IMG/VR virus record: IMGVR_UViG_3300032243_000867
Location: 96,001 to 160,000 of that record
DNA: 64,000 nt
Direction: 5' to 3' (one strand)
Source of the DNA: a virus
Lineage: Duplodnaviria; Caudoviricetes
Part shown: positions 11,806 through 37,655 of the stretch, in pieces
Layout: each line of letters begins with the position of its first letter
Position numbering within the stretch: position 1 is the stretch's first letter
The notes under the pieces: model-generated
What the model was told of the DNA's origin: nothing
Seen by the model: the letters and a program-made list of their open reading frames with translations, nothing else
Database searches by the model: none
Position numbers and translations under genes: made by a program

Positions 11806-12321
11806 ATGCGAGTACATCGTAACGCCCACCTCTCTTCTATTCGGTCGGCTCGGGCTACGTTCAACCGCGTCCCTCCGGTGGTTGAGGAATCCGCCCCGGT
11901 GCCGGTGGTTGAGGAATCCGTCCCGGTAAAGGCGGCTTCAGTGCCCGTCAAGACTTTTCACCTCCCCCCTCTCAAGGTGAGGTTGAAGGCACCCGAGCCT
12001 GCCTCCGTGGCTGTTGAAACCGCCGCTCCCGTAGCGGAAGTTTCCGTAGCGGAAGTTTCCGTAGCGGAAGTTCCCGTAGCGGAAGTTCCCGTAGCGGAAG
12101 TTCCCGTAGCGGAAGTTCCCGTAGCGGAAGTTCCCGTAGCGGAAGTTCCCGTAGCGGAAGCTCCCGTAGCGGAAGCTCCCGTAGCGGAAGCTCCCGTAGC
12201 GGAAGCTCCCGCCCCGGCGAAGCGCGCCCGCAAGCGCAAGGCCGAAGCCGCCGAGGCTCCCGCCGTCGAGTCTCCCGCCGTCGAGTCTCCCGCCGTCGAG
12301 TCTCCCGCCGTCGAGTCTTGA
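11806..12321 (+). CDS. Low-complexity Ala/Glu/Val/Pro protein
   Basis: SD gaaagg. Sequence dominated by VAEVP and PAVES repeats. Confidence 0.55.
   Translation: MRVHRNAHLSSIRSARATFNRVPPVVEESAPVPVVEESVPVKAASVPVKTFHLPPLKVRLKAPEPASVAVETAAPVAEVSVAEVSVAEVPVAEVPVAEVPVAEVPVAEVPVAEVPVAEAPVAEAPVAEAPVAEAPAPAKRARKRKAEAAEAPAVESPAVESPAVESPAVES
12031..12210 (+). repeat. 15-nt tandem repeat x12 (VAEVS x2, VAEVP x6, VAEAP x4)
   Basis: gtagcggaag(t/c)t(t/c)cc, 12 contiguous copies. Confidence 0.95.
12259..12318 (+). repeat. 15-nt tandem repeat x4 (PAVES)
   Basis: cccgccgtcgagtct x4 ending at the stop codon. Confidence 0.95.
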
Positions 12322-12360
12322 AAGTTTCTTGGGCGGTAAGGTTCTGCCCAAGGAGTCCCC

Positions 12361-13605
12361 ATGGCCGATCTACTGTTCACCGCAGGTTCCTTTCGTTCGT
12401 TCCGCGCCGCCGTCCGCTTCCATCTCGGAAAGATCCAGCAAGACGTTCTGAAAGATGATGTCGTCGAGTTCGACGGCACCACCTTGAAGCTGAACGGGAC
12501 CACCCACGCCCTTCCCGAGCTTCGGAGTGCGATCAAGGCCGGTTGGCTCTCTCCGACGGGTTCGACGGTTAACGACTACGTTCCTCAGTCCGCGAACGTG
12601 AAGGTTCGCGCCGCGATGGACAAGGACAAGGGCAAGACGGTCTCCACCGAGGTCCAGCAGGACGAGACGTTCGTCGGAAGCGCCCGCAAGGCGAGCACGA
12701 CGGATGGTGTGCGAATCGAGTCCAAGGCTTTCAATGCGACTCTGGTTCGGGATACCGAGGGCGACGGTCGCACTGTCGGTGCCGCCACCAAGAAGTCCGT
12801 GCCCGCGGGGGGCGACGCCACGGAAGGTGAGCCCGTGGCGAAGATCAAGACCGCCGCGAGGCGGAGCTTCTCCGTGGACGGCAGCACCAGCATGAACGCG
12901 GACGCGGACGCGGGTTCCGACGTGACGGGCGTGGTCGAACACATCAAGGGGGTGACCCCGAGGGTGGCCCCCGGAGGCGAGGCAGAGGAGATCACCCGCG
13001 AAGGTCAGTCCAGCGACGGCGGAAAAGTCATCGCCAACGTGAAGACAGCCGCGAAGCGCAAGGTCGTCCTCACGGACGCCAACTCCGCGGACCAAGAGAT
13101 CAGCAAGCTGGACAACAGCACCCGCTCTGCCCTCGCCCCCCGGGGCAAGCGAGACATCGCGGCCCTCGCGGGTGATACGCTTGAGGAGATCGTCCCTGCG
13201 AACGAGCCCGAGAACCGCGGGCGTATGTTGGCCGAGCAAGCCAAGGCCAAGCGTCTCGCGGCCCTCAAGGCCAAGGAGGCCCTCCCCGTCGCGGAGATTG
13301 AAGCTGAGGCTCCCGAGGGGGGTGACATCCCCGAGAACCACTGGAAGACCCCCGAGAAGGCGGCGAACGCGACCCCCCCGGTGAAAGTCACGGCGAAGCA
13401 GCCGAAGTCGGTGGAGGATTTCGCCGTGAACGGCGACGAACTGGAGCTCGCCCCCGGTGTCCGCTGGAACAAGAAGCTCCACTGGAAGACCCGCGTGAAG
13501 CAAGCCCTCCAGTACCGGGACCGCCCCGAGATCCTCAACCTCATTCGCGGCTACGAGGTTCCCTCCGTCGTGAACTCCATCGACGAGGCCCTCTCGTCGC
13601 CCTAG
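12361..13605 (+). CDS. Hypothetical protein with internal repeated modules
   Basis: SD aaggag. Repeated G..V(A/I)..K(T)AA segments. Confidence 0.65.
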   Translation: MADLLFTAGSFRSFRAAVRFHLGKIQQDVLKDDVVEFDGTTLKLNGTTHALPELRSAIKAGWLSPTGSTVNDYVPQSANVKVRAAMDKDKGKTVSTEVQQDETFVGSARKASTTDGVRIESKAFNATLVRDTEGDGRTVGAATKKSVPAGGDATEGEPVAKIKTAARRSFSVDGSTSMNADADAGSDVTGVVEHIKGVTPRVAPGGEAEEITREGQSSDGGKVIANVKTAAKRKVVLTDANSADQEISKLDNSTRSALAPRGKRDIAALAGDTLEEIVPANEPENRGRMLAEQAKAKRLAALKAKEALPVAEIEAEAPEGGDIPENHWKTPEKAANATPPVKVTAKQPKSVEDFAVNGDELELAPGVRWNKKLHWKTRVKQALQYRDRPEILNLIRGYEVPSVVNSIDEALSSP

Positions 13606-24940: not shown

Positions 24941-25711
24941 ATGTCAGTAGTCTTCAACCCCGGACAGACCATCGGGCAGGGTGATCTAGACATCTTCCTG
25001 ACCAACGCGGGCGGGTTTCCTGCCAATGCGGCGTCGATAACCTACGCCCTGTACTACGTCTCCCCCGGACCGCCTGAGACGGAGGTGCTCATCGGGTCCG
25101 CCACCCGCACGCCCGTCAACCCCACGGTGGGCGAGTACTACGCCTCCCTCACCGTGCCCGCGATGGCGACGCCCGGTGACTATCGCATCCGGTGGACGTT
25201 CCAGCAGTTCGCGGGTTCGCCCCCGCAACAAGTGGTGATGGAGTGGGGCGTCGTCTCGGCAGGGCTCATCGCCGTGGGTGCGTACAGCACCCTCACCCAA
25301 GGGATGATCGACAAGTTGCGGTTGCTCCTCCGAGACCAGAACCCGGACAAGTTCTACCACTTCCGGCCCCCGGAGGCCGAGGGGAACATCGGCGCGTACA
25401 ACCGCGTCTTCGGTTACGTCTGGCAGGACAACGAGCTCTTCGAGTACCTAGAGCGCGGGATGGACTGGTGGAACATGATGCCGCCCAACACGGGCGGCTT
25501 CACCCTCGACCAGATGGTCCAGCAGAAGCCCGAATGGCGCACGGCGGTCCTCTGGGACGCCATCACCCACGCTTGCTTCGCCCTCGCGTGCAATTGGGTC
25601 GTTGACGAGTTCTCGGTGAGTTCGGTTACACTACTTCACCTATCCCTGCCCGATGGTAGGAAGGTCGAGGTACCCATTGGCGAGCTCTACGACATCTGCA
25701 CCGACGAGTGA
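24941..25711 (+). CDS. N-half of fractured putative neck/head-tail protein (224-aa extein plus 32-aa IntN)
   Basis: SD ggagga. The extein ends NWVVDEF, followed by the intein block A-like SVSSVTLLHLSLPDGRKVEVPIGELY and a stop. Confidence 0.8.
   Translation: MSVVFNPGQTIGQGDLDIFLTNAGGFPANAASITYALYYVSPGPPETEVLIGSATRTPVNPTVGEYYASLTVPAMATPGDYRIRWTFQQFAGSPPQQVVMEWGVVSAGLIAVGAYSTLTQGMIDKLRLLLRDQNPDKFYHFRPPEAEGNIGAYNRVFGYVWQDNELFEYLERGMDWWNMMPPNTGGFTLDQMVQQKPEWRTAVLWDAITHACFALACNWVVDEFSVSSVTLLHLSLPDGRKVEVPIGELYDICTDE
25613..25708 (+). mobile_element. Split intein N-fragment (IntN, 32 aa, Ser1)
   Basis: S-V-x3-T...DG...PIGELY matches the intein N-terminal block A pattern. Confidence 0.8.
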
Positions 25712-26657
25712 CCTGTCTCCCCGTCAAGTGTCCGTTCGGTACGGGTTCAACTCCCGCGCCGTGATGGATCTTGTTTCCGATGGAACCCTCGTGTTGAGGG
25801 GCCGGAAGGTCACCGCCGCAAGCCTATCCGCCCTCGTCGAAGGGGTGCATTACGTTCGGTGTCGGGAGTGCGGGGCGTTCGCCGCGATGATCCACTCGGC
25901 ACATCTGAAGGCGTGTTCCGGCTTGGCCTCTCTGGGCGAGTACCTAGCGAAGCATCCCGGTGCGCCCGTGATGTCGGAGCGGAACAAGGCCCGGAAAGCC
26001 AAGACCCCCTCACAGCGGGAAGCTCAGTCGCAGAAGCTCAAGGCCCGCTTCCAGACCGCCGAAGGTGATGCAACCCGCCGACAAATCGCGGACTCCTCGC
26101 GACGGATGCAAGCGTCGGAGTCCGGGCAACGTTGCAAGGATCACCTCCGCAAGATGAACTCGGACCCCGCCGTGAAAGCACAACGTAGGGCCGACACCAA
26201 AGCCCGATGGGAGTCGGGTGCCCTTCGTGAAGCCGTCGAAGGGTGGCACCGGGAACACCGGGACGAGTCCCTGTCGTCCGCCCTTCAAGCTAGGCGCTAC
26301 ATTCAACGGAAACGCACGGGCCTCCACCTCAAGTTCAAGGCCCTCATGGAGAGCAACGGGCTCCACGGGTTCGTCACCGAGTACGAGGTCGGGTACCACG
26401 CCGTGGACGAAACCCGCCCCGACTTGAAGATCGCAGTCGAAATAGACGGCTGCTACTGGCACTCTTGCCCCCAGTGCGGGCTCACCGGACCCCGGAGCAC
26501 CCTCCGCACGGACAAGACCAAGACCGCCTACTTGACCAATCGTGGGTGGACGGTGCTCCGCCTCTGGGAGCACGACATCAACCGCGACCCTATGGGGTGC
26601 CTAGATCGTATTCGTCAACTCGTCGCGGACAAGGAACGTGAGAACCATGTTGGATGA
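25653..26657 (+). CDS. Free-standing Vsr/DUF559-like endonuclease between the split-intein halves
   Basis: C-terminal EYEVG...VDE...IAVEIDGCYWH...D..K..YL..RGWTVLRLWEHD. N-terminal Ros/MucR-like Zn finger (YVRCRECG...HLK). Start uncertain (25653 or 25764). Confidence 0.85.
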   Translation: MVGRSRYPLASSTTSAPTSDLSPRQVSVRYGFNSRAVMDLVSDGTLVLRGRKVTAASLSALVEGVHYVRCRECGAFAAMIHSAHLKACSGLASLGEYLAKHPGAPVMSERNKARKAKTPSQREAQSQKLKARFQTAEGDATRRQIADSSRRMQASESGQRCKDHLRKMNSDPAVKAQRRADTKARWESGALREAVEGWHREHRDESLSSALQARRYIQRKRTGLHLKFKALMESNGLHGFVTEYEVGYHAVDETRPDLKIAVEIDGCYWHSCPQCGLTGPRSTLRTDKTKTAYLTNRGWTVLRLWEHDINRDPMGCLDRIRQLVADKERENHVG

Positions 26658-27054
26658 AGCAACCCGAGCCGCAATCCGTGAAGCCTACCGGGCTGGAAAA
26701 CTCAAGGTCGAAGCCGTAGACCCGGCGACGGGGGCAGCTTCTCTTCAGACCGTCACCGCCGTCCTGCGGCACCGCACCCCCCACAAAGACATGGTCCGGG
26801 TGACGCTGACGGACGGTCGATGGGTGGAATGCACCGTGGACCACAGCCTCTTCACCATGGCCGGGGAAGGCGTCACGCCCGTTCCCGCCGGGGAGCTCCA
26901 CGCCGGGGCCTTCATCGCCACGGTCGAGGGCGGGGTAGCCAAGGGTGTCGAGGTGGCCTCCGTCGTGTCCCTACCCCCCGAGGAACACACCTACGACCTG
27001 TCCGTGCCGGGACCCGAGAACTTCGTCCTCGCCAACGGAATCCTCGCCCACAAC
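26647..27054 (+). mobile_element. Split intein C-fragment (IntC, 136 aa, +1 Ser)
   Basis: Canonical HN|S splice junction at 27054/27055. Confidence 0.9.
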
Positions 27055-27276
27055 TCGTACTCCATCGGTGGCGTCTCGTTGGACATCGAAAAGGCCAGCA
27101 AGTACGAGAGCCTCAAGCAAAACGCTGAGTCCCAGTTCGACAAGGCGGCGGAAGCCAAGGCCCGCACCGTCAAGTTCATCCGGGGCATTCAGCAGCCCAA
27201 GTACGGGGTGGGTATTCGCAGTTCCTTCGGACCAAATGTAGGTAGAGGTGTGCTAAGTCCCCGTAATTTCCTTTGA
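26647..27276 (+). CDS. C-half of fractured gene (136-aa IntC plus 73-aa C-extein)
   Basis: SD aaggaa and ATG 26647. Block B TVDHSLF, block F TYDLSVPGPENFV, block G ILAHN, then SYSIGGVSLD. Confidence 0.9.
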   Translation: MLDEATRAAIREAYRAGKLKVEAVDPATGAASLQTVTAVLRHRTPHKDMVRVTLTDGRWVECTVDHSLFTMAGEGVTPVPAGELHAGAFIATVEGGVAKGVEVASVVSLPPEEHTYDLSVPGPENFVLANGILAHNSYSIGGVSLDIEKASKYESLKQNAESQFDKAAEAKARTVKFIRGIQQPKYGVGIRSSFGPNVGRGVLSPRNFL

Positions 27277-30182: not shown

Positions 30183-30533
30183 GTGAACCTCCTTCACGTC
30201 GCCGCGCGCATCGCCACGGACCTTCGCGGGAAGCAGCGGCAGGGGTACTACCTCGCCGCCGTGGGGGTGCGTCGGGACGGTGCCCTCGTGCGCGCCACCA
30301 ACAAGGCCAAGCTGGCGAACGGGTACCTCCCGGTGCCGTCTACTCACGCGGAGGCGCGACTGTGCCGCAAGCTCGACGCGAGTGCGGAGGTGTACGTCGC
30401 GCGAGTTCTGTGGAACGGGCAGTGGGCGATGTCTCGCCCGTGTGAGCGATGCCGTCTGGCGCTGGGGGCTCGCCGGGTGCGGCGGGTCTACTACACCATC
30501 GGCCCCGGCGAGTACGGGGTGATGGACTTTTAG
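30183..30533 (+). CDS. Zn-dependent deaminase (cytidine deaminase superfamily)
   Basis: HAE and SRPCERC motifs. Confidence 0.85.
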   Translation: MNLLHVAARIATDLRGKQRQGYYLAAVGVRRDGALVRATNKAKLANGYLPVPSTHAEARLCRKLDASAEVYVARVLWNGQWAMSRPCERCRLALGARRVRRVYYTIGPGEYGVMDF

Positions 30534-30847: not shown

Positions 30848-32044
30848 ATGAATCAGCCGCACCCCCTCGCGAAGCTCAACAACAAGAACGGTCTCGGATG
30901 GTGGGATTGGGTCCGCCCCGAGGACGGCGTTCGTCAGATCGTCCTCACGGGAGAGGGTTGTCTGTCCGACGCCCATACCGAATCCCTCGCCGGGGAGTTC
31001 CTTACGGACTCTCACTACGAGGTGCTTCTACGCCCCGAGGACGGAGACGTGGACGTGTACAAGCCCCGGGTTGTCGGGGCGTTGGATATGCTCATGGGCG
31101 AGGGGGAGAGCGCGGGAGAGCTTTCCGAGTCTCGTCTCCTCCTTTCTATCCGTCGCAAGAGGTTCCCGGCGGGTCTGTGCTCCGTTGCCCGTGATTCTCT
31201 TCGCGCCGCAGCCTTTCCGTCGCGCAACCGAGGTGCGGCAGCGGGGAAGGCAGACCCGGAGAAGATGAAGCGTGATTCGTCGTTGGTTCTCTCCCGGGGG
31301 AACACGGCGAAATACTACACCAAGGACGGATTGCTCTCGAACACCACCGAGAGCAACTGGGTGAATTCTGGGATCGTAGGGTACTTCAACGCCACGTCCC
31401 GGAACCCCTACTGCCGTCAGACCGCGTACACCCGCGACAACGCGGACAAGTTCGCGGCGGCGATGCCCTTCCTCGAAGAAGTCAACCGGGCGTTTCGAGA
31501 CGTGTCCCCGGCGCGGTGGGGGGCTCAGAACCGTTACGTCTCGGAGGAGACGGACCTCCGCGAGAAGGGCTGGCTTCTCGGGGACACGGTGTTCTCGACG
31601 GTCACCGTCAACAAGAACTACCGCACGGGTTGCCACCAAGACGCCGGGGACTACCACCCCGGGTTCGGCAACCTCACCGTTTTCGAGGGTTCCGCCCACC
31701 GCTACGCGGGCGGGTACACGGTGTTCCCGAAGTTCCGCTGCGCCGTGGATCTCCGCGAGGGGGACTTCATCGGGATGGACGTTCACGAGTGGCACGGGAA
31801 CACGGAGATGACGGCGGCGGTCCCGGGAGAGGATGACTGGGAGCGGGTTTCCCTCGTCTGCTACGTTCGGGTGGACATGACCCGGTGCGGCACCCGCTCT
31901 GAAGAAGAGCGGAAGCGAGAGGAGTGGACCAAGACCTGGAGGAACCCGGTCGAGCAGCACGCCTTCCGTCTCGAAGAGGATCGACATCAGCAAGAGGGTC
32001 TCGCCAACGCCATGGGCGTATTGTTCTCTTCGGAGGAAGAATGA
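30848..32044 (+). CDS. TET/JBP-family 2OG-Fe(II) dioxygenase
   Basis: SRNRGAAAG, SGIVGYF...PYCRQTAY, FSTVTVNKNYRTGCHQDAGD (HxD), HEWHGNT (distal H) and RVSLVCY (RxS). Confidence 0.9.
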   Translation: MNQPHPLAKLNNKNGLGWWDWVRPEDGVRQIVLTGEGCLSDAHTESLAGEFLTDSHYEVLLRPEDGDVDVYKPRVVGALDMLMGEGESAGELSESRLLLSIRRKRFPAGLCSVARDSLRAAAFPSRNRGAAAGKADPEKMKRDSSLVLSRGNTAKYYTKDGLLSNTTESNWVNSGIVGYFNATSRNPYCRQTAYTRDNADKFAAAMPFLEEVNRAFRDVSPARWGAQNRYVSEETDLREKGWLLGDTVFSTVTVNKNYRTGCHQDAGDYHPGFGNLTVFEGSAHRYAGGYTVFPKFRCAVDLREGDFIGMDVHEWHGNTEMTAAVPGEDDWERVSLVCYVRVDMTRCGTRSEEERKREEWTKTWRNPVEQHAFRLEEDRHQQEGLANAMGVLFSSEEE

Positions 32045-32625
32045 GTACAGAAGGTCCGAAGGTTCTCTGGGTGCTCGGTGAGCCTGGGGTGGGGAAGACA
32101 ACTCTGGTCCGTGAGCTCACGAAGGGAACTCTGTTTTCATTCGTCGAGAACCCGAAGTGGACCTTTGCCGGGGAAGGGTTCGCTCTCGCTGGTCACTACA
32201 AGGGCGGGACGTTCGACGGCGCGGACACGGTTCCCTACAACGGGGCTGACGCCGCACTGATCTACTGGGAGCAGAACCTTCGGGGCAAGTACCCGGTGAC
32301 GATTCTGGACGGTGACCGTTTCTCTCACGACGGTGCTCGGCGGTTTTTTTCGCCCCTCGCGTCTACGTTCGCGGTTCTACTGACGGCCCCTTCGGAAGTC
32401 GTCTCCGCCCGCAGACAGGAGCGCGGGTCGAATCAATCTGCTTCCTGGGTGGCGGGGCGGAAAACGAAGTCCGCCCGTTTCTTCGAGGGTTTCGATAACT
32501 CCCACGCCCTTCAAATCGACGCCTCGCTCCCGGTTGAACAGATTGTGGAACGGGTGAGGGACCTGTTGCAGAACGGCTCTGGGCGGGACAACTCCGACGG
32601 TCTTCTCTCTTGGTTGGGATCGTGA
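32041..32625 (+). CDS. P-loop kinase, 5-hydroxymethylpyrimidine DNA kinase-like
   Basis: Walker A GEPGVGKT, GHYKGGTFDGADT and ILDGDRF. ATGA-coupled to the TET stop. Confidence 0.75.
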   Translation: MSTEGPKVLWVLGEPGVGKTTLVRELTKGTLFSFVENPKWTFAGEGFALAGHYKGGTFDGADTVPYNGADAALIYWEQNLRGKYPVTILDGDRFSHDGARRFFSPLASTFAVLLTAPSEVVSARRQERGSNQSASWVAGRKTKSARFFEGFDNSHALQIDASLPVEQIVERVRDLLQNGSGRDNSDGLLSWLGS

Positions 32626-33572
32626 GCGATCTTCTCTCTTGGTTCGGTGAAGCCTCTGCGCCAGCCCCTTCCGAGACCGCCCCTTACTACGAACGCCCCT
32701 TGTTCGATTCGTTCGTGAAGTTCGCGAAGGCCCATATCGAGAGCGGCGACATCGACCCGGCTTACCCGGTCTTGAAGGAGGTCTACCGGATGCGGGGATA
32801 CTCCCGCGAGACTGCCCTCTGGCACACTCTTCTGTACGTCACTTGGTACAACGTCGGGTCCGCCGAGGAAGCGTTCGCCCGATACCCCAATGCCCCGTCA
32901 AGGCTCGAAGAGCCTCTGACCCTTCCGACGGGCACGGAGCGCCGTTCGTTTCGCGGTAACGATCTGGCCCGCACTCACCTCAACGCTCTTCTGGAGAGGG
33001 CTCGCCCCCACGGATCCCTTTCACGTTGGGCGGAAGCCGCAACGGAGAAGGGCGGGGAAGCGGGCTGGGACGGGATACGGACGGAGTTCCAGAGCGTGAA
33101 ATACGCGGGTCCTTGGAGCAGCTACAAGCTCGCTGACCTCCTCGCCCACGTTCACGACTTCCCCATCACAGCTTCGGACCTCGGTATCGGGGGGGCGAGT
33201 GAGACAGCGGGTCCGATTCCCGGTATGGTCAAGCTCACCGGGTACGACTGGAAGAAGTGCGCGACGGACCTCGGACTCCAGCGGGAGCTTTTGGCCCGCA
33301 GCCGCGACCGGGGCGTACCCTTCTCTGGCCTCGACCAACTAGAAACCTCCCTGTGCGACTTCAACTCTCTCTGCAAGGGTAGGTACTACGTCGGGCACGA
33401 CCTCGACCAGCAAATGGAGCACCTCCGTAGCGCGAGCGCCGCCGAGGACTTCTGGACCGCCCGCAGAAAGACGTTCCCGGTTCGTTATCTCGGAGAGGTG
33501 AACGGGTGGTTCGGCGTAAGAAAATCCCTCAAGGACAAGTTTCATTTCAACGGCGATCTGGTGCAGATCTAG
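32622..33572 (+). CDS. Amino acid:DNA transferase (AADT / aGPT-Pplase2 family)
   Basis: GDIDPAY, ERRSFR, GPWSSYKLADLL and ETSLCDF...GRYYVGHDLD. GTGA-coupled to the kinase stop. Confidence 0.8.
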   Translation: MSDLLSWFGEASAPAPSETAPYYERPLFDSFVKFAKAHIESGDIDPAYPVLKEVYRMRGYSRETALWHTLLYVTWYNVGSAEEAFARYPNAPSRLEEPLTLPTGTERRSFRGNDLARTHLNALLERARPHGSLSRWAEAATEKGGEAGWDGIRTEFQSVKYAGPWSSYKLADLLAHVHDFPITASDLGIGGASETAGPIPGMVKLTGYDWKKCATDLGLQRELLARSRDRGVPFSGLDQLETSLCDFNSLCKGRYYVGHDLDQQMEHLRSASAAEDFWTARRKTFPVRYLGEVNGWFGVRKSLKDKFHFNGDLVQI

Positions 33573-33584
33573 GGGCGAATGGAA

Positions 33585-33796
33585 ATGAGACGCGCCTCAA
33601 ATAGGTTGAGGACAGGGAAGATTCTCTGCTGTCACGTCACAGATGCCAATCTCAACTATTCCGGTAGCGCGACAACGGATCCGGCGCTTCTGGAAGCGGC
33701 GGGGCTCTCCGAGAGGTCGAGATCTGGAATGTGACCGACGGAGAGAGGTTCTCCGCCTACCTTCCCAATTCATCGAAGTCCCGCAAGGAAATCTGT
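33585..33796 (+). pseudogene. panD: Frameshifted, truncated aspartate 1-decarboxylase relic
   Basis: First frame reads GKILCCHVTDANLNYSGSATTDPALLEAAGL. After a shift at ~33713 it reads EVEIWNVTDGERFSAY...KEIC, then runs into the PLP gene start. Confidence 0.75.
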
Positions 33797-34610
33797 GAGT
33801 CTTCTCATCGAAGGAACACCCGTCGAACGGGTAACTGATCGCGTCTCCGTGAAGCGGGAGGATATGTGCTCCCCCTTCCCTGGACCCTCTTTCAGTAAGA
33901 TCCGGGGCGTGCTGAAGCACATCGAGAAGCGCCCGGAAACCGAAATCGGGGTTCTGGACACCTACCACTCCAAAGCGGGTTGGGCCGTGTCCTACGTCTC
34001 CCACCACCTGGGTAAGAAGGCTCTGGACTTTTACCCCCGATACAAAGGGGACGGACCCGAGGTGCGGGATCAGCAGAAGATGGCGCGGGAGTATGGCGCG
34101 GAGCTTTTCGAGCTTCCGGCGGGACGTAGCGCGATTCTCTATCACCAAGCGCGTAAGGAGTGCGTACGGCGCGAAGCGTACCTCATGCCCAACGCCCTGA
34201 AGCTGCCGGAAACCGTGGGGGAGTGTGCCGAGGAGGTTCTCCGTACCCCAGACCTTCACAAGTACGCGAATCTAGTGATCAGCGTCTCGTCGGGGACGAT
34301 AGCGTCAGGGGTGCTTCTTGGTTTCGCGAAAGCCAAGATTTACCCGACTGTCTGGCTCCACGCCGGGTACTCGCGTTCCGAATCCGAGCTCCGCCGATAC
34401 ATCACGGCGAAGGTTCCGAAGTTGTCTTTCTGGCCTTCAGAAGTGAACCTCATCGACGAGGGCTACGGATACAAGGACGCCGCGAAGATCGACGACCCGC
34501 CCCCCTTCCCCTGCAACCCCTACTACGACCTGAAGGCGTGGAAGTGGCTGAAGAGCGGGGCGGAAGATCGAATGACGGGCGAAATTTTGTTCTGGAACGT
34601 CGGGGCGTAA
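33795..34610 (+). CDS. PLP-dependent enzyme (fold type II), putative modified-base decarboxylase
   Basis: VKREDM...SKIRG (Schiff-base Lys), SVSSGTIASG and FPCNPYYDLKAW...FWNVG. Confidence 0.8.
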   Translation: MSLLIEGTPVERVTDRVSVKREDMCSPFPGPSFSKIRGVLKHIEKRPETEIGVLDTYHSKAGWAVSYVSHHLGKKALDFYPRYKGDGPEVRDQQKMAREYGAELFELPAGRSAILYHQARKECVRREAYLMPNALKLPETVGECAEEVLRTPDLHKYANLVISVSSGTIASGVLLGFAKAKIYPTVWLHAGYSRSESELRRYITAKVPKLSFWPSEVNLIDEGYGYKDAAKIDDPPPFPCNPYYDLKAWKWLKSGAEDRMTGEILFWNVGA

Positions 34611-34642
34611 GTCCCCAAAACTCTGAAACTGAAAGGCACGCG

Positions 34643-36106
34643 ATGGATCTCGACGCATGGCTCGAAGAAGACCTCACCTCGGAGGAGACGAAACAAGCCT
34701 ACCAGTATTTCATGAAGCCCGAGCCCCGCGACATCGCCGGGGACTTGGAGACGGACCCGGAGACGGGCATCCGTTCCCGGCTCATGCGTATCGGAATGCT
34801 TCGGGGCATGAAGGACGAGGACAAGAAGACCTATCGGGTGTATCTTGACCCGATTCCCCACATCCGCATCGACGAGGGCAAGCCTCTTCAGGCTTGGTAC
34901 AAATCGAAGCACGAAGAGCCCGGTGTCCGCAACCGCCCGTGCTTTACCGAAGCGATCCTCACCCAGCCGTACGGAGGGTTCTGCGCGGTGGGTTGTGCTT
35001 TCTGTTACATCAATAGCGGGTTCAAGGGCTACCGGGGATCGGGCCTTATCTCCGTTCCGATGGGGTACGGGAAGCAGGTCCGGGAGTCCCTGAAGAAGAT
35101 GAAGACCTCGGCAGCGGGGTACTTCAGCTCTTTCACCGACCCGTTCCTTCCCTTGGAGGACGTTTACCACAACACGCAGGAAGGCGCTCAGGCGTTCGTG
35201 GATGAGGGGCTCCCCATCTTCTTCCTCTCCCGCATCAAATACCCTTCCTGGGCGTTCGATCTTCTGCGGCAGAATCCGTATAGCTACGCTCAGAAGAGCA
35301 TCAACTGCGCGAACCAGGAAGACTGGAAGCGCCTGTCCCCCGGCGCGGCATCCCTCGCTACTCACATGGAGGACATCCGCGAGCTTCGCAAGGCGGGCAT
35401 CTACGTCAGCATCCAAGTCAATCCCATCATCCCCGGAGTCGTGAATCATGACGACGTAGAGCAGGTGTTCGAGATGCTTGCGGAAGCCGGGGCGAACCAC
35501 GTCATCGTGAAGTTCGTCGAGGCCAGCTACTCTTGGGCTCCCGCGATGGCGGAGAAGATCCGTTTCCGCTTCGGGAAAGAGCGCGGAAGTAAGTTCGAGA
35601 GCCTCTTCACCGAGAACATCGGGGGTCAGCGAACCATCGTGGAGGAATACCGGATGGAAGGTCACCGCCGATACCAGAAGGCGGCTACCCGTCTCGGGAT
35701 GACGTACGCGACCTGCTACGAGTACCGGATGGAGCGGGATGCCGCCGGAAGGGTCACGAACAAGACGGGCGTGTCCGTGGGAAAAGAATTCCTCACGGCG
35801 GATCAGTGCCACGGACACAAGGTGCCGATGTTCACCCGGTCCGATCAGAAGGAGCCCTTCCGCGAAGTTTCACACTGCCCGCCGACGGGATGCCTCTCCT
35901 GTTCGGACGACAACGGCGGGAAGGCCCGCTGCGGTTCCGAGTTGTACGGCGCGGCAGCGGCGCTTCGCCTACCGGACTTGAAGGTCGGGGTGTACGATGA
36001 CGTTCCCGCTTCGCGGAAGCGTTCGCTCCCCGTGATCAACACCCCGGCCCCCGCTCCCCTCCCCACGACCATGTCCGAAATCCTCGGGCTGAGCGGAGAA
36101 GAGTAG
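34643..36106 (+). CDS. Radical SAM enzyme
   Basis: CAVGCAFC (CxxxCxxC). SD gaaagg before ATG 34643. Confidence 0.9.
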   Translation: MDLDAWLEEDLTSEETKQAYQYFMKPEPRDIAGDLETDPETGIRSRLMRIGMLRGMKDEDKKTYRVYLDPIPHIRIDEGKPLQAWYKSKHEEPGVRNRPCFTEAILTQPYGGFCAVGCAFCYINSGFKGYRGSGLISVPMGYGKQVRESLKKMKTSAAGYFSSFTDPFLPLEDVYHNTQEGAQAFVDEGLPIFFLSRIKYPSWAFDLLRQNPYSYAQKSINCANQEDWKRLSPGAASLATHMEDIRELRKAGIYVSIQVNPIIPGVVNHDDVEQVFEMLAEAGANHVIVKFVEASYSWAPAMAEKIRFRFGKERGSKFESLFTENIGGQRTIVEEYRMEGHRRYQKAATRLGMTYATCYEYRMERDAAGRVTNKTGVSVGKEFLTADQCHGHKVPMFTRSDQKEPFREVSHCPPTGCLSCSDDNGGKARCGSELYGAAAALRLPDLKVGVYDDVPASRKRSLPVINTPAPAPLPTTMSEILGLSGEE

Positions 36107-36571
36107 TCACCCCACCCACCACTCCGGGCGATTCCTCCGCCAAGTCCCCAACCTCCCCCCTCGCTTCGTCTGGTAGTACCTCCGATACGCGCCCACCGAT
36201 TCGTGACCTCTCAGTTCCACGGGCATCGCTTGGGCGAACGGGGTCATCATTCGGTCGGGGAGGGAGGGGACGTTCTCTGCGAGGTGGAGCAGCACGGCCT
36301 CCGTGGCGTGCGTCTTCCCGTACCGGGCCGTGTACTCGCGGCACAGTTCCAGACCTAGCTCGCACAGCCACAGGTAGTTTGCTTGTGAGTCTCTCGCCCA
36401 CACGGCGCAAGGGTGGTTCGCGTGCGTCGGTCGGTACGGGGCGGTACTCCCCGTGAGGTGATGGGCGGTGCAGAGTAGCTGCGCCGTTTCCAGCACCATC
36501 TTCACGACGTGGGCATCGCAGTGCCACCGTGCGGCTTGGCGGGGATCGTAGTGGAGGGCGAAGACGTTCAC
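36107..36571 (-). CDS. denV: Pyrimidine-dimer DNA glycosylase / endonuclease V-like protein
   Basis: MNVF.L...HCDAHVVKMVLETAQLL...THANHPC..W...Y..RYGKTH...AYRRYY. Confidence 0.85.
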   Translation of the reverse strand: MNVFALHYDPRQAARWHCDAHVVKMVLETAQLLCTAHHLTGSTAPYRPTHANHPCAVWARDSQANYLWLCELGLELCREYTARYGKTHATEAVLLHLAENVPSLPDRMMTPFAQAMPVELRGHESVGAYRRYYQTKRGGRLGTWRRNRPEWWVG

Positions 36572-36609: not shown

Positions 36610-37059
36610 ATGGAACCCGCCCGCCCGGTCCTGTACTTCGGGTACGGGTCGAACCTGAACGTGCCCGTGATGCTATCGCGGGTGCCCCACGCCAAGTTGC
36701 TGTTCGGTGCGTACCTCCCCTACCACAAGCTCACCTTCGCGGGCGATCACCCGATCAGCGGCGGTGGCGGTAAAGCGACGCTGGTGCCCGCGATGTCCCT
36801 CGTGCCCGGTGCCTTGTACTCGGTGACTCGCGATGACCTTCACCTACTGGACCACATGGAGGGCACCCCCACGGGCAACCACCGCCACAACGAGTACGTC
36901 TACGGCTGGGACGGCACCCGCTACGAAGCCTTCATGTACCGCCAGAACTCGGGCACCCCGTACCACCAGCCCTCGGAAGAGTACCTGCGGATGATCGTCG
37001 AGGGCCGTAAGATGTTCGGATACCCTTTCTCCGACGTGATCCAAGAGGCCATGCGATGA
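36610..37059 (+). CDS. Gamma-glutamylcyclotransferase (GGCT/AIG2-like)
   Basis: YFGYGSNL...LDHMEG...PSEEYL. Confidence 0.85.
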   Translation: MEPARPVLYFGYGSNLNVPVMLSRVPHAKLLFGAYLPYHKLTFAGDHPISGGGGKATLVPAMSLVPGALYSVTRDDLHLLDHMEGTPTGNHRHNEYVYGWDGTRYEAFMYRQNSGTPYHQPSEEYLRMIVEGRKMFGYPFSDVIQEAMR

Positions 37060-37655
37060 CCCCCGGCACGCACAAGCTCCCGCCCCTGCCCTACGCCTAC
37101 GATGCCCTTGAGCCGTGGATGGGCGCGGAGACGGCGCGGCTGCACCACGGCAAACACCACCAAGCCTACGTTGACGGGTTGAACGAAGCTGAAGTCGAGC
37201 TCGCCAAGGCGAGGGCTTCGGGCGACATCAAGCTCGTCCCGTACTGGCAGACCCGGCGAGCGTTCAATGAGGGCGGGCACGTTCTGCACTCGATCTTCTG
37301 GCATTGTATGTCGCCCGACGGCGGCGGGCTTCCCGCGGGCAACCTAGCCACCCTGATTGACCGGGACTTCGGCGGGTACAAGGCGTTCCGCCGTGAGTTC
37401 GTCGCCACGGCCAAGGGCGTCGAGGGGTCGGGCTGGGCGGTTCTCGTACTCAAGCGCGGGATGCGCGGTGGACGCCTAGAGGTGGCACCCGTTCACAATC
37501 ACGAGAACCGCGCCCTGTGGCAGTCACAGGTGCTGCTCCCGATGGACGTGTGGGAGCACGCCTACTACCTCGACCACCAGAACGACCGGGAGGGCTGGGC
37601 CAACACCTTCCTCGACCATCTGGTGGACTGGGACTACGTCGGAACGAGGCTCTAA
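37056..37655 (+). CDS. sod: Fe/Mn superoxide dismutase
   Basis: LPYAYDALEP, HHGKHHQAYV, GGHVLHSIFW, GSGW and DVWEHAYY. Confidence 0.97.
   Translation: MTPGTHKLPPLPYAYDALEPWMGAETARLHHGKHHQAYVDGLNEAEVELAKARASGDIKLVPYWQTRRAFNEGGHVLHSIFWHCMSPDGGGLPAGNLATLIDRDFGGYKAFRREFVATAKGVEGSGWAVLVLKRGMRGGRLEVAPVHNHENRALWQSQVLLPMDVWEHAYYLDHQNDREGWANTFLDHLVDWDYVGTRL

Follow-up and report, generated by a model that had tools for sequence, protein, structure and literature searches.

A predicted dioxygenase-initiated operon for post-replicative thymidine hypermodification in a freshwater jumbo phage

Introduction

Could a phage build a hypermodified thymine entirely on finished DNA, with a dioxygenase rather than a modified nucleotide pool providing the hydroxymethyl group on which the later enzymes act? 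The question is raised by a 64,000-nt stretch of viral DNA (the window), bases 96001-160000 of the 265,895-bp IMG/VR virus contig IMGVR_UViG_3300032243_000867, in which the gene for a TET/JBP-family (5mYOX) Fe(II)/2-oxoglutarate dioxygenase is followed by genes for a P-loop kinase, an amino acid:DNA transferase (AADT), a pyridoxal phosphate (PLP)-dependent enzyme and a radical S-adenosylmethionine (SAM) enzyme. The contig has a G+C content of 64% and is ~59% complete according to CheckV, which at this length points to a jumbo phage of roughly 450 kb. We read the five genes as an operon of a freshwater jumbo phage for thymidine hypermodification that is started by a dioxygenase and takes place wholly after replication, with 5-(2-aminoethyl)-2'-deoxyuridine (5-NedU) as its likely product, and give this reading a probability of about 0.65.

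The natural comparison is the 5-NedU pathway of Pseudomonas phage M6 (Lee et al. 2018 and 2021, PMC8989533), which has the same four post-replicative enzyme classes; the 2021 paper describes M6 gp52 as a PLP-dependent decarboxylase and gp53 as a glycinyl-thymine isomerase. In M6, 5-hydroxymethyl-2'-deoxyuridine (5-hmdU) comes from a ThyA-family dUMP hydroxymethylase that acts before replication and is encoded nearby (gp58), whereas here we found no such gene in 266 kb and a TET/JBP gene heads the operon.

Operon organisation

The first three genes, on the + strand like the rest of the operon, encode the dioxygenase (30848..32044, 398 aa), the P-loop kinase (32041..32625, 194 aa) and the AADT (formerly aGPT-Pplase2; 32622..33572, 316 aa from a GTG at 32622). 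The dioxygenase stop and the kinase ATG overlap as ATGA, and the kinase stop and the AADT start as GTGA, an arrangement that points to translational coupling of the three. A gap of 222 bp separates the AADT gene from that of the PLP-dependent enzyme (33795..34610, 271 aa, PALP fold), which lies 32 bp from the gene for the SPL-like radical SAM enzyme (34643..36106, 487 aa); the products of these last two genes are orthologues of M6 gp52 and gp53, respectively. A sequence-only reading of the window had proposed these five genes, with overlapping codons joining the TET, kinase and AADT genes, and the domain matches given below and the two junctions confirm it. A longer radical SAM open reading frame (ORF), from 34160, is spurious and reflects an in-frame GTG upstream of the gene; the gene itself starts with the ATG at 34643, where a ribosome-binding site is present. 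Scanning for sigma-70 promoters and terminators returned nothing above shuffled expectation.

Two observations argue against a chance arrangement. The same genes stand together in three independent contigs (loci L004, L015 and L020), and all five are under purifying selection, with ratios of nonsynonymous to synonymous substitution (dN/dS), computed against L015 and L004, of 0.07-0.23, values that are approximate because synonymous sites are nearly saturated. Freshwater metagenomes of several independent studies, dated 2017 to 2025, contain near-identical DNA, and the contigs from those metagenomes have the same gene junctions as the window. Cultured phages gave no megablast match to the cluster, their relationship to it being at the protein level only.

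The dioxygenase and the source of the hydroxymethyl group

The dioxygenase matches Pfam Tet_JBP (PF12851) with 62.7 bits (cut-off 34.9; 3e-17) over profile positions 2-163 of 164. It has the HxD...H iron triad and the 2-oxoglutarate-binding arginine (H263, D265, H313/H316 and R333), all five residues being the same throughout an alignment of 32 sequences. A Foldseek search of the PDB with its AlphaFold (AF2) model (pLDDT 91.4) returned CMD1, TET2, NgTET1 and CcTet at the top, with E-values of 1e-9 to 1e-11, while a sequence-profile search of the PDB gave TET2 as a marginal match only (E 0.003); the fold is closest to that of TET2, as in O'Toole et al. 2026 (PMC13229309). The model also shows ~100 additional, beta-rich residues at the N terminus and a helical tail at the C terminus. 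A search of the whole contig showed this to be its sole Tet_JBP gene.

We predict from these matches that the enzyme is a thymine C5-methyl hydroxylase that would act on DNA, converting some of its thymines to 5-hmdU. Such a role has precedents. Lee et al. 2021 (PMC8989533) describe contigs without a dUMP hydroxymethylase that encode TET_JBP beside thymidine hypermodification genes, and propose that TET_JBP converts T to 5-hmU in situ. Burke et al. 2021 (PMC8256090) report TET contigs with P-loop kinase and aGPT-Pplase genes and show that TET89 oxidises T, and O'Toole et al. 2026 (PMC13229309) reconstituted phage T-dioxygenases, among which clade C1 is tied to kinases, AADTs and GATases. The statement in the sequence-only reading that characterised phage TETs act on 5-methylcytosine (5mC) is outdated, as thymine dioxygenases of phages have been reconstituted in vivo and in vitro and TET89 belongs to the T-oxidising enzymes. 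Those tested converted 1-35% of T in E. coli DNA and showed YTY or NTR preferences (PMC13229309), and by analogy some sequence selectivity of the enzyme described here is plausible.

What else could supply, or receive, the hydroxymethyl group? In the 266-kb contig, PF00303 picks up no ThyA-family gene and the ThyA-like gp58 of M6 has no tblastn match; a ThyA-family gene is likewise missing from a 97.6-kb relative that we searched. No C5-cytosine methyltransferase (C5-MTase, also C5-MT; PF00145) is present in the 266 kb. The earlier claim that the window lacks both a dUMP hydroxymethylase and a C5-MTase thus holds, and our search extends it to all 265,895 bp. Neither did the contig yield a ParB_N domain at E <= 0.001 or a tblastn match to gp1 of Mycobacterium phage Phelemich, and the genes upstream of the dioxygenase include no ParB by Pfam or PHROG. 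What the contig does encode, outside the window, is a ThyX (G000:C1:74086-75918, that is L002:280-2112), a 610-aa ORF whose last 200 residues form the Thy1 domain, preceded by a LAGLIDADG domain, so that the protein probably contains a LAGLIDADG intein. The phage thereby provides for dTMP and would replicate its genome with ordinary dTTP. Taken together, the presence of ThyX and the lack, in a contig that leaves ~41% of the genome unseen, of a ThyA-family gene, a C5-MTase, a ParB_N domain and a second Tet_JBP gene favour thymine in DNA as the substrate of the dioxygenase.

Just upstream of the dioxygenase gene (30183-30533 of the window) lies a 116-aa deaminase of the CDA fold, with HAE and PCxxC intact and 82% conserved in the related locus L013; one possible role is that of a small dCMP deaminase that supplies ThyX.

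Every cultured M6-type phage has a ThyA-family hydroxymethylase near its cluster, and with the contig 59% complete a pre-replicative dUMP hydroxymethylase might be encoded in the unsequenced ~41%, leaving the TET/JBP enzyme to do another job, such as marking a few sites or further oxidation. We consider this very unlikely, given that ThyA-family genes were found neither in the 266 kb nor in the 97.6-kb relative, that the phage-encoded ThyX makes dTMP, and that the dioxygenase is tied so closely to the kinase, through the codon overlap here, fusion in three relatives and shared cassettes in nearly all loci of the subfamily (see below).

A second alternative, that the substrate is cytosine, would have the dioxygenase turn 5mC into 5-hydroxymethylcytosine (5hmC) and the kinase, AADT, radical SAM and PLP-dependent enzymes build an aminoethyl-type cytosine on it, a product that the sequence-only reading had put forward as a possibility. 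Some phage TETs do use 5mC, phage T-dioxygenases oxidise 5mC too in vitro (PMC13229309), and Burke et al. 2021 (PMC8256090) speculated that P-loop kinases phosphorylate TET-made 5hmC in contigs with a C5-MT. The 266 kb examined here hold no C5-MTase, however, and C5-MT co-occurs with only ~6% of 5mYOX pathways (PMC13229309). Moreover, the AADT, radical SAM and PLP-dependent enzymes are orthologous to enzymes characterised only on uracil-derived substrates, the downstream enzymes being close orthologues of ones characterised with thymidine-derived substrates, and we therefore disfavour the aminoethyl-cytosine product and hold the cytosine route to be extremely unlikely.

The kinase and the AADT

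With thymine as the preferred starting point, the next step would fall to the coupled P-loop kinase, predicted to be a 5-hmdU DNA kinase that converts 5-hmdU to 5-phosphomethyl-2'-deoxyuridine (5-PmdU). Its Walker A motif is GEPGVGKTT, and it could be aligned over its whole length to M6 gp54 and Phelemich gp5, the residues G13, G16, G18, K19, D62 and R124 being common to them. The context of the gene in relatives is informative: dioxygenase and kinase are fused in single proteins in L005, L017 and P0011, and among the 9 loci of this dioxygenase subfamily there are 8 in which the kinase is part of the same protein, an immediate neighbour or a member of the same cassette. Such fusions are strong context evidence that the two enzymes act consecutively. 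The fused proteins, Tet_JBP joined to a P-loop kinase, measure 723 aa in L005 (L005:7983-10154) and 664 aa in L017 (L017:8001-9995); the 97.6-kb record to which L005 belongs showed no AADT.

The AADT would then exchange the phosphate for an amino acid, most likely glycine, giving N-alpha-glycinylthymidine (N-alpha-GlyT). The protein matches Pfam ADDT (PF18724) with 47.1 bits (cut-off 26.2; 3e-12) and is 23% identical to M6 gp51, a glycine transferase, with which the motifs GDxDPxY, ERR and ETxLC (Cys245) are invariant; the catalytic ETxLC cysteine of the M6 enzyme is thus kept. Among cultured phages its closest relatives, at 34-36% identity, come from the ParB/TET cassettes of actinophages.

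The radical SAM and PLP-dependent enzymes

The last two enzymes resemble those of M6 far more closely. The radical SAM enzyme is 62% identical to M6 gp53 over 460 aa, matches phrog_9252 at 1e-206 and has the CxxxCxxC motif as CAVGCAFC (CTVGCAFC in M6); like gp53, it would isomerise N-alpha-GlyT to C-alpha-glycinylthymidine (C-alpha-GlyT). The PLP-dependent enzyme aligns with M6 gp52 over its full length (55% identity, E 2e-101) and matches phrog_7093 at 3e-84. Both proteins have the segment SFSKIRGV, whose lysine presumably forms the Schiff base. A tblastn search with this enzyme matched 70 phage records, 53 of them from Pseudomonas phages (M6-type) and nine from Bordetella phages. Its predicted step is the gp52-type decarboxylation of C-alpha-GlyT to 5-NedU.

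The radical SAM orthologue of L004 (L004:4482-6887; IMGVR_UViG_3300013131_000273) is a single 801-aa ORF with an in-frame insert of ~316 aa exactly at the third cysteine of CxxxCxxC (C121 of the window protein). The insert has a weak Pfam Intein_splicing match and probably represents an intein placed within the motif that binds the iron-sulfur cluster.

The gap between the AADT and PLP genes

Most of the 222-bp gap, which the sequence-only reading had passed over, is taken up by a relic of a PanD-like (pyruvoyl) aspartate decarboxylase gene (33579..33794, + strand), a pseudogene that is non-functional. The ORF at 33579-33731 matches Pfam Asp_decarbox at 2e-7, above the cut-off, and keeps the NYSGS self-cleavage site, while a second frame carries the next PanD segment, EIWNVT..RFSAY; the relic amounts to ~60 N-terminal codons, frameshifted and cut off by the start of the PLP gene. 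No intact PanD is found elsewhere in the contig.

Where did the rest of the gene go? In L015, a 261-kb contig, the order is TET, kinase, AADT, PanD-like decarboxylase, a 323-aa protein, PLP and radical SAM. By blastn, window positions 32675-33764 correspond to 9808-10904 of L015 and window positions 33769-34606 to 12175-13012, and the split match implies that ~1.27 kb was deleted, comprising the remainder of the PanD-like gene and the whole gene for the 323-aa protein. This protein appears to be a divergent amidoligase (weak phrog_2443 matches; PF12224 in 2 of 51 homologues). An intact PanD-like gene followed by the amidoligase-like gene occurs in L015, L020 and L022, and further Tet_JBP/AADT/kinase clusters also contain the amidoligase-like protein, with either PanD or a GATase as its partner. 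In our literature search, aspartate decarboxylase was not linked to phage thymidine hypermodification. The operon is thus a reduced derivative of a seven-gene ancestor that had PanD-like and amidoligase-like genes between AADT and PLP. After their loss, the window retains exactly the M6 enzyme set.

A frameshifted, truncated fragment inside an operon could also be a sign of ongoing erosion, in which case the operon would be decaying or inactive and virion DNA canonical. That we think highly improbable: the five remaining ORFs are intact, their catalytic residues are conserved, and their dN/dS values (above) are low. Contigs of two further freshwater studies span the junction at the relic with no indels, indicating that the reduced form of the operon is established in nature, and the five-gene form with this same junction recurs in contigs of other freshwater studies and years. 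L004 also lacks the PanD-like and amidoligase-like genes and has kept the remaining ones.

The lineage of the cassette bears on the product as well. With the AADT standing beside a PanD-like decarboxylase and an amidoligase-like protein in relatives, with only 23% identity to M6 gp51 and with the actinophage AADTs as its nearest cultured kin, the enzyme might install an amino acid other than glycine, or the radical SAM and PLP-dependent enzymes might process the adduct differently, so that the same type of pathway would end in an aminoalkyl-uracil other than 5-NedU. Combinatorial diversity of products is stressed by Lee et al. 2021 (PMC8989533). We nevertheless regard another product as unlikely. 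The M6 counterparts of the radical SAM and PLP-dependent enzymes, at 62% and 55% identity, have glycinyl-thymidine as their substrate, the enzyme set that remains here is that of M6, and the actinophage AADT relatives adjoin an oxidoreductase of PaMx11 type that uses flavin adenine dinucleotide (FAD), the PaMx11 enzyme itself also using N-alpha-GlyT (PMC8989533).

Cassette exchange among relatives

In L004 the order TET, kinase, AADT, PLP, a 249-aa ORF and radical SAM is tightly packed, and in L020 the full set is present in another order with the dioxygenase last. The proteins of L015 and L004 are 64-89% identical to those of the window. The closest genome relative, however, is L013 (on a 170-kb contig of NCBI GCA_013565555.1), whose dioxygenase is 82% identical and whose flanks are 81-85% identical. 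L013 is collinear with the window as far as the stop codon of the dioxygenase, and collinearity resumes at the Pyr_excise-like gene; in the slot between, at L013:9191-13442, it carries a different cassette of similar size, made up of a deoxyribonucleotidase-like gene, an unrelated AADT (phrog_3271), an Inos-1-P_synth-like enzyme, a Methyltransf_21 protein and, at the far end, the kinase. The L013 contig also holds a second Tet_JBP paralogue (L018).

The window is a mosaic, with its dioxygenase closest to L013 and its tailoring cassette closest to L015 and L004, and it exemplifies the modular gene pool that published work has proposed. A bolder reading, which we find unlikely, combines an undescribed end base (from an AADT that uses a non-glycine amino acid, or from a handle made on 5mC that leads to an aminoethyl-type cytosine) with an exchange site that would lie between the dioxygenase and the Pyr_excise-like gene, through which near-identical jumbo phages would come to carry different hypermodified thymines, by PLP and radical SAM enzymes here and by inositol-phosphate-synthase-like and methyltransferase enzymes in L013.

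Neighbouring genes

Downstream of the operon lie genes for a Pyr_excise-like protein (36107-36571, - strand; phrog_624), a gamma-glutamyl cyclotransferase-like (AIG2/GGACT) protein (36610-37059, + strand) and an Fe/Mn superoxide dismutase (37056-37655, + strand). We considered these three as possible parts of the system and rejected them, as they are kept in L013 beside a different cassette and are absent near the L015 and L004 cassettes. It is worth recording that an Fe(II) dioxygenase and a radical SAM enzyme here have a superoxide dismutase as a neighbour. Elsewhere in the window (24941-27276), an intein splicing domain (26638-27276) adjoins a DUF559/Vsr-like endonuclease (25653-26657).

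Discussion

Our analysis suggests that the phage would make 5-NedU in its DNA through a dioxygenase that starts, and M6-type enzymes that finish, the pathway. We infer all of the enzymatic steps, the thymine substrate, the glycine donor and the final product from homology and gene context, and the product would presumably protect the DNA from host nucleases. Least secure are the identity of the donated amino acid and, for the first step, how far it proceeds and which sites it prefers.

Several observations weigh against this reading. The best specific Pfam match of the kinase, Ploopntkinase3, scores 23.5 against a cut-off of 27, and its BLAST alignment to M6 gp54 covers the P-loop only. An AADT that shares just 23% identity with M6 gp51 makes glycine a less certain donor. 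The dioxygenase is ~100 aa longer than the characterised phage T-dioxygenases (398 vs ~290-300 aa), and some clade C1 enzymes without ParB were inactive in E. coli assays (PMC13229309). A hydroxymethylase, a C5-MTase or a ParB could lie in the ~41% missing from a contig that is ~59% complete.

How, then, does the operon relate to known systems? Downstream it is like that of M6, with PLP and radical SAM genes that are adjacent and in the same order, but its first step does not appear to be of the M6 type. The AADT and the kinase come from other clades than those of M6, and the gene order differs (kinase-AADT-PLP-radical SAM here, AADT-PLP-radical SAM-kinase in M6), as do the phages, M6 being a 59-kb siphovirus. 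The same concept is found in sequences 22-25 of Figure 2 of Lee et al. 2021, which lack a dUMP hydroxymethylase and have TET_JBP beside 5-HMUDK (the 5-hmdU DNA kinase) and AADT. Among the 5mYOX clades C1 (ParB-dependent) and C2 (ParB-independent; PMC13229309, PMC8256090), which share with this operon a Tet_JBP without a neighbouring C5-MT, the linkage to a P-loop kinase and an AADT is a likeness to C1, in a comparison made by gene context and length. Clade C1 differs in having a ParB-like activator gene, of which the contig shows no sign at the level of ParB_N, while the tested ParB-independent enzymes have the shorter length given above. The actinophage cassette of ParB, TET_JBP, AADT, FAD oxidoreductase and Ploopntkinase3 (for example Phelemich gp1-gp5) is dioxygenase-initiated too; it differs in its ParB partner and in having the PaMx11-type FAD enzyme in place of radical SAM and PLP, and its dioxygenase has no BLAST-detectable similarity to the one here.

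The sequence-only reading had proposed that the TET/JBP enzyme makes the hydroxymethyl handle directly on DNA and feeds an M6-type branch. The codon coupling, the fusions, the orthology to gp52 and gp53 and the lack of ThyA-family and C5-MTase genes in the contig lend support to that proposal; its claim to be a new hybrid route falls, such routes having been described by O'Toole et al. 2026 (PMC13229309) and by Lee et al. 2021 (PMC8989533). The operon is a well-documented new example of a design already described and leaves the known concept unchanged. The accessible text of the published descriptions mentions no Tet_JBP that stands together with a radical SAM/PLP pair of the M6 type.

Comparison with relatives supplies further details of the modular gene pool. 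The dioxygenase forms a unit with the kinase, to the point of fusion in some relatives, and close relatives show a clean replacement of the tailoring cassette that follows the two. The PanD-like and amidoligase-like pair is an optional sub-module, of which the window preserves the scar left by its deletion. For enzymatic DNA labelling, the conserved front end of dioxygenase, kinase and AADT could prove useful. If our reading is true, this phage would make 5-NedU wholly after replication, without a switch of its nucleotide pool, and would offer a natural test case for the completeness and sequence selectivity of dioxygenase-started hypermodification.

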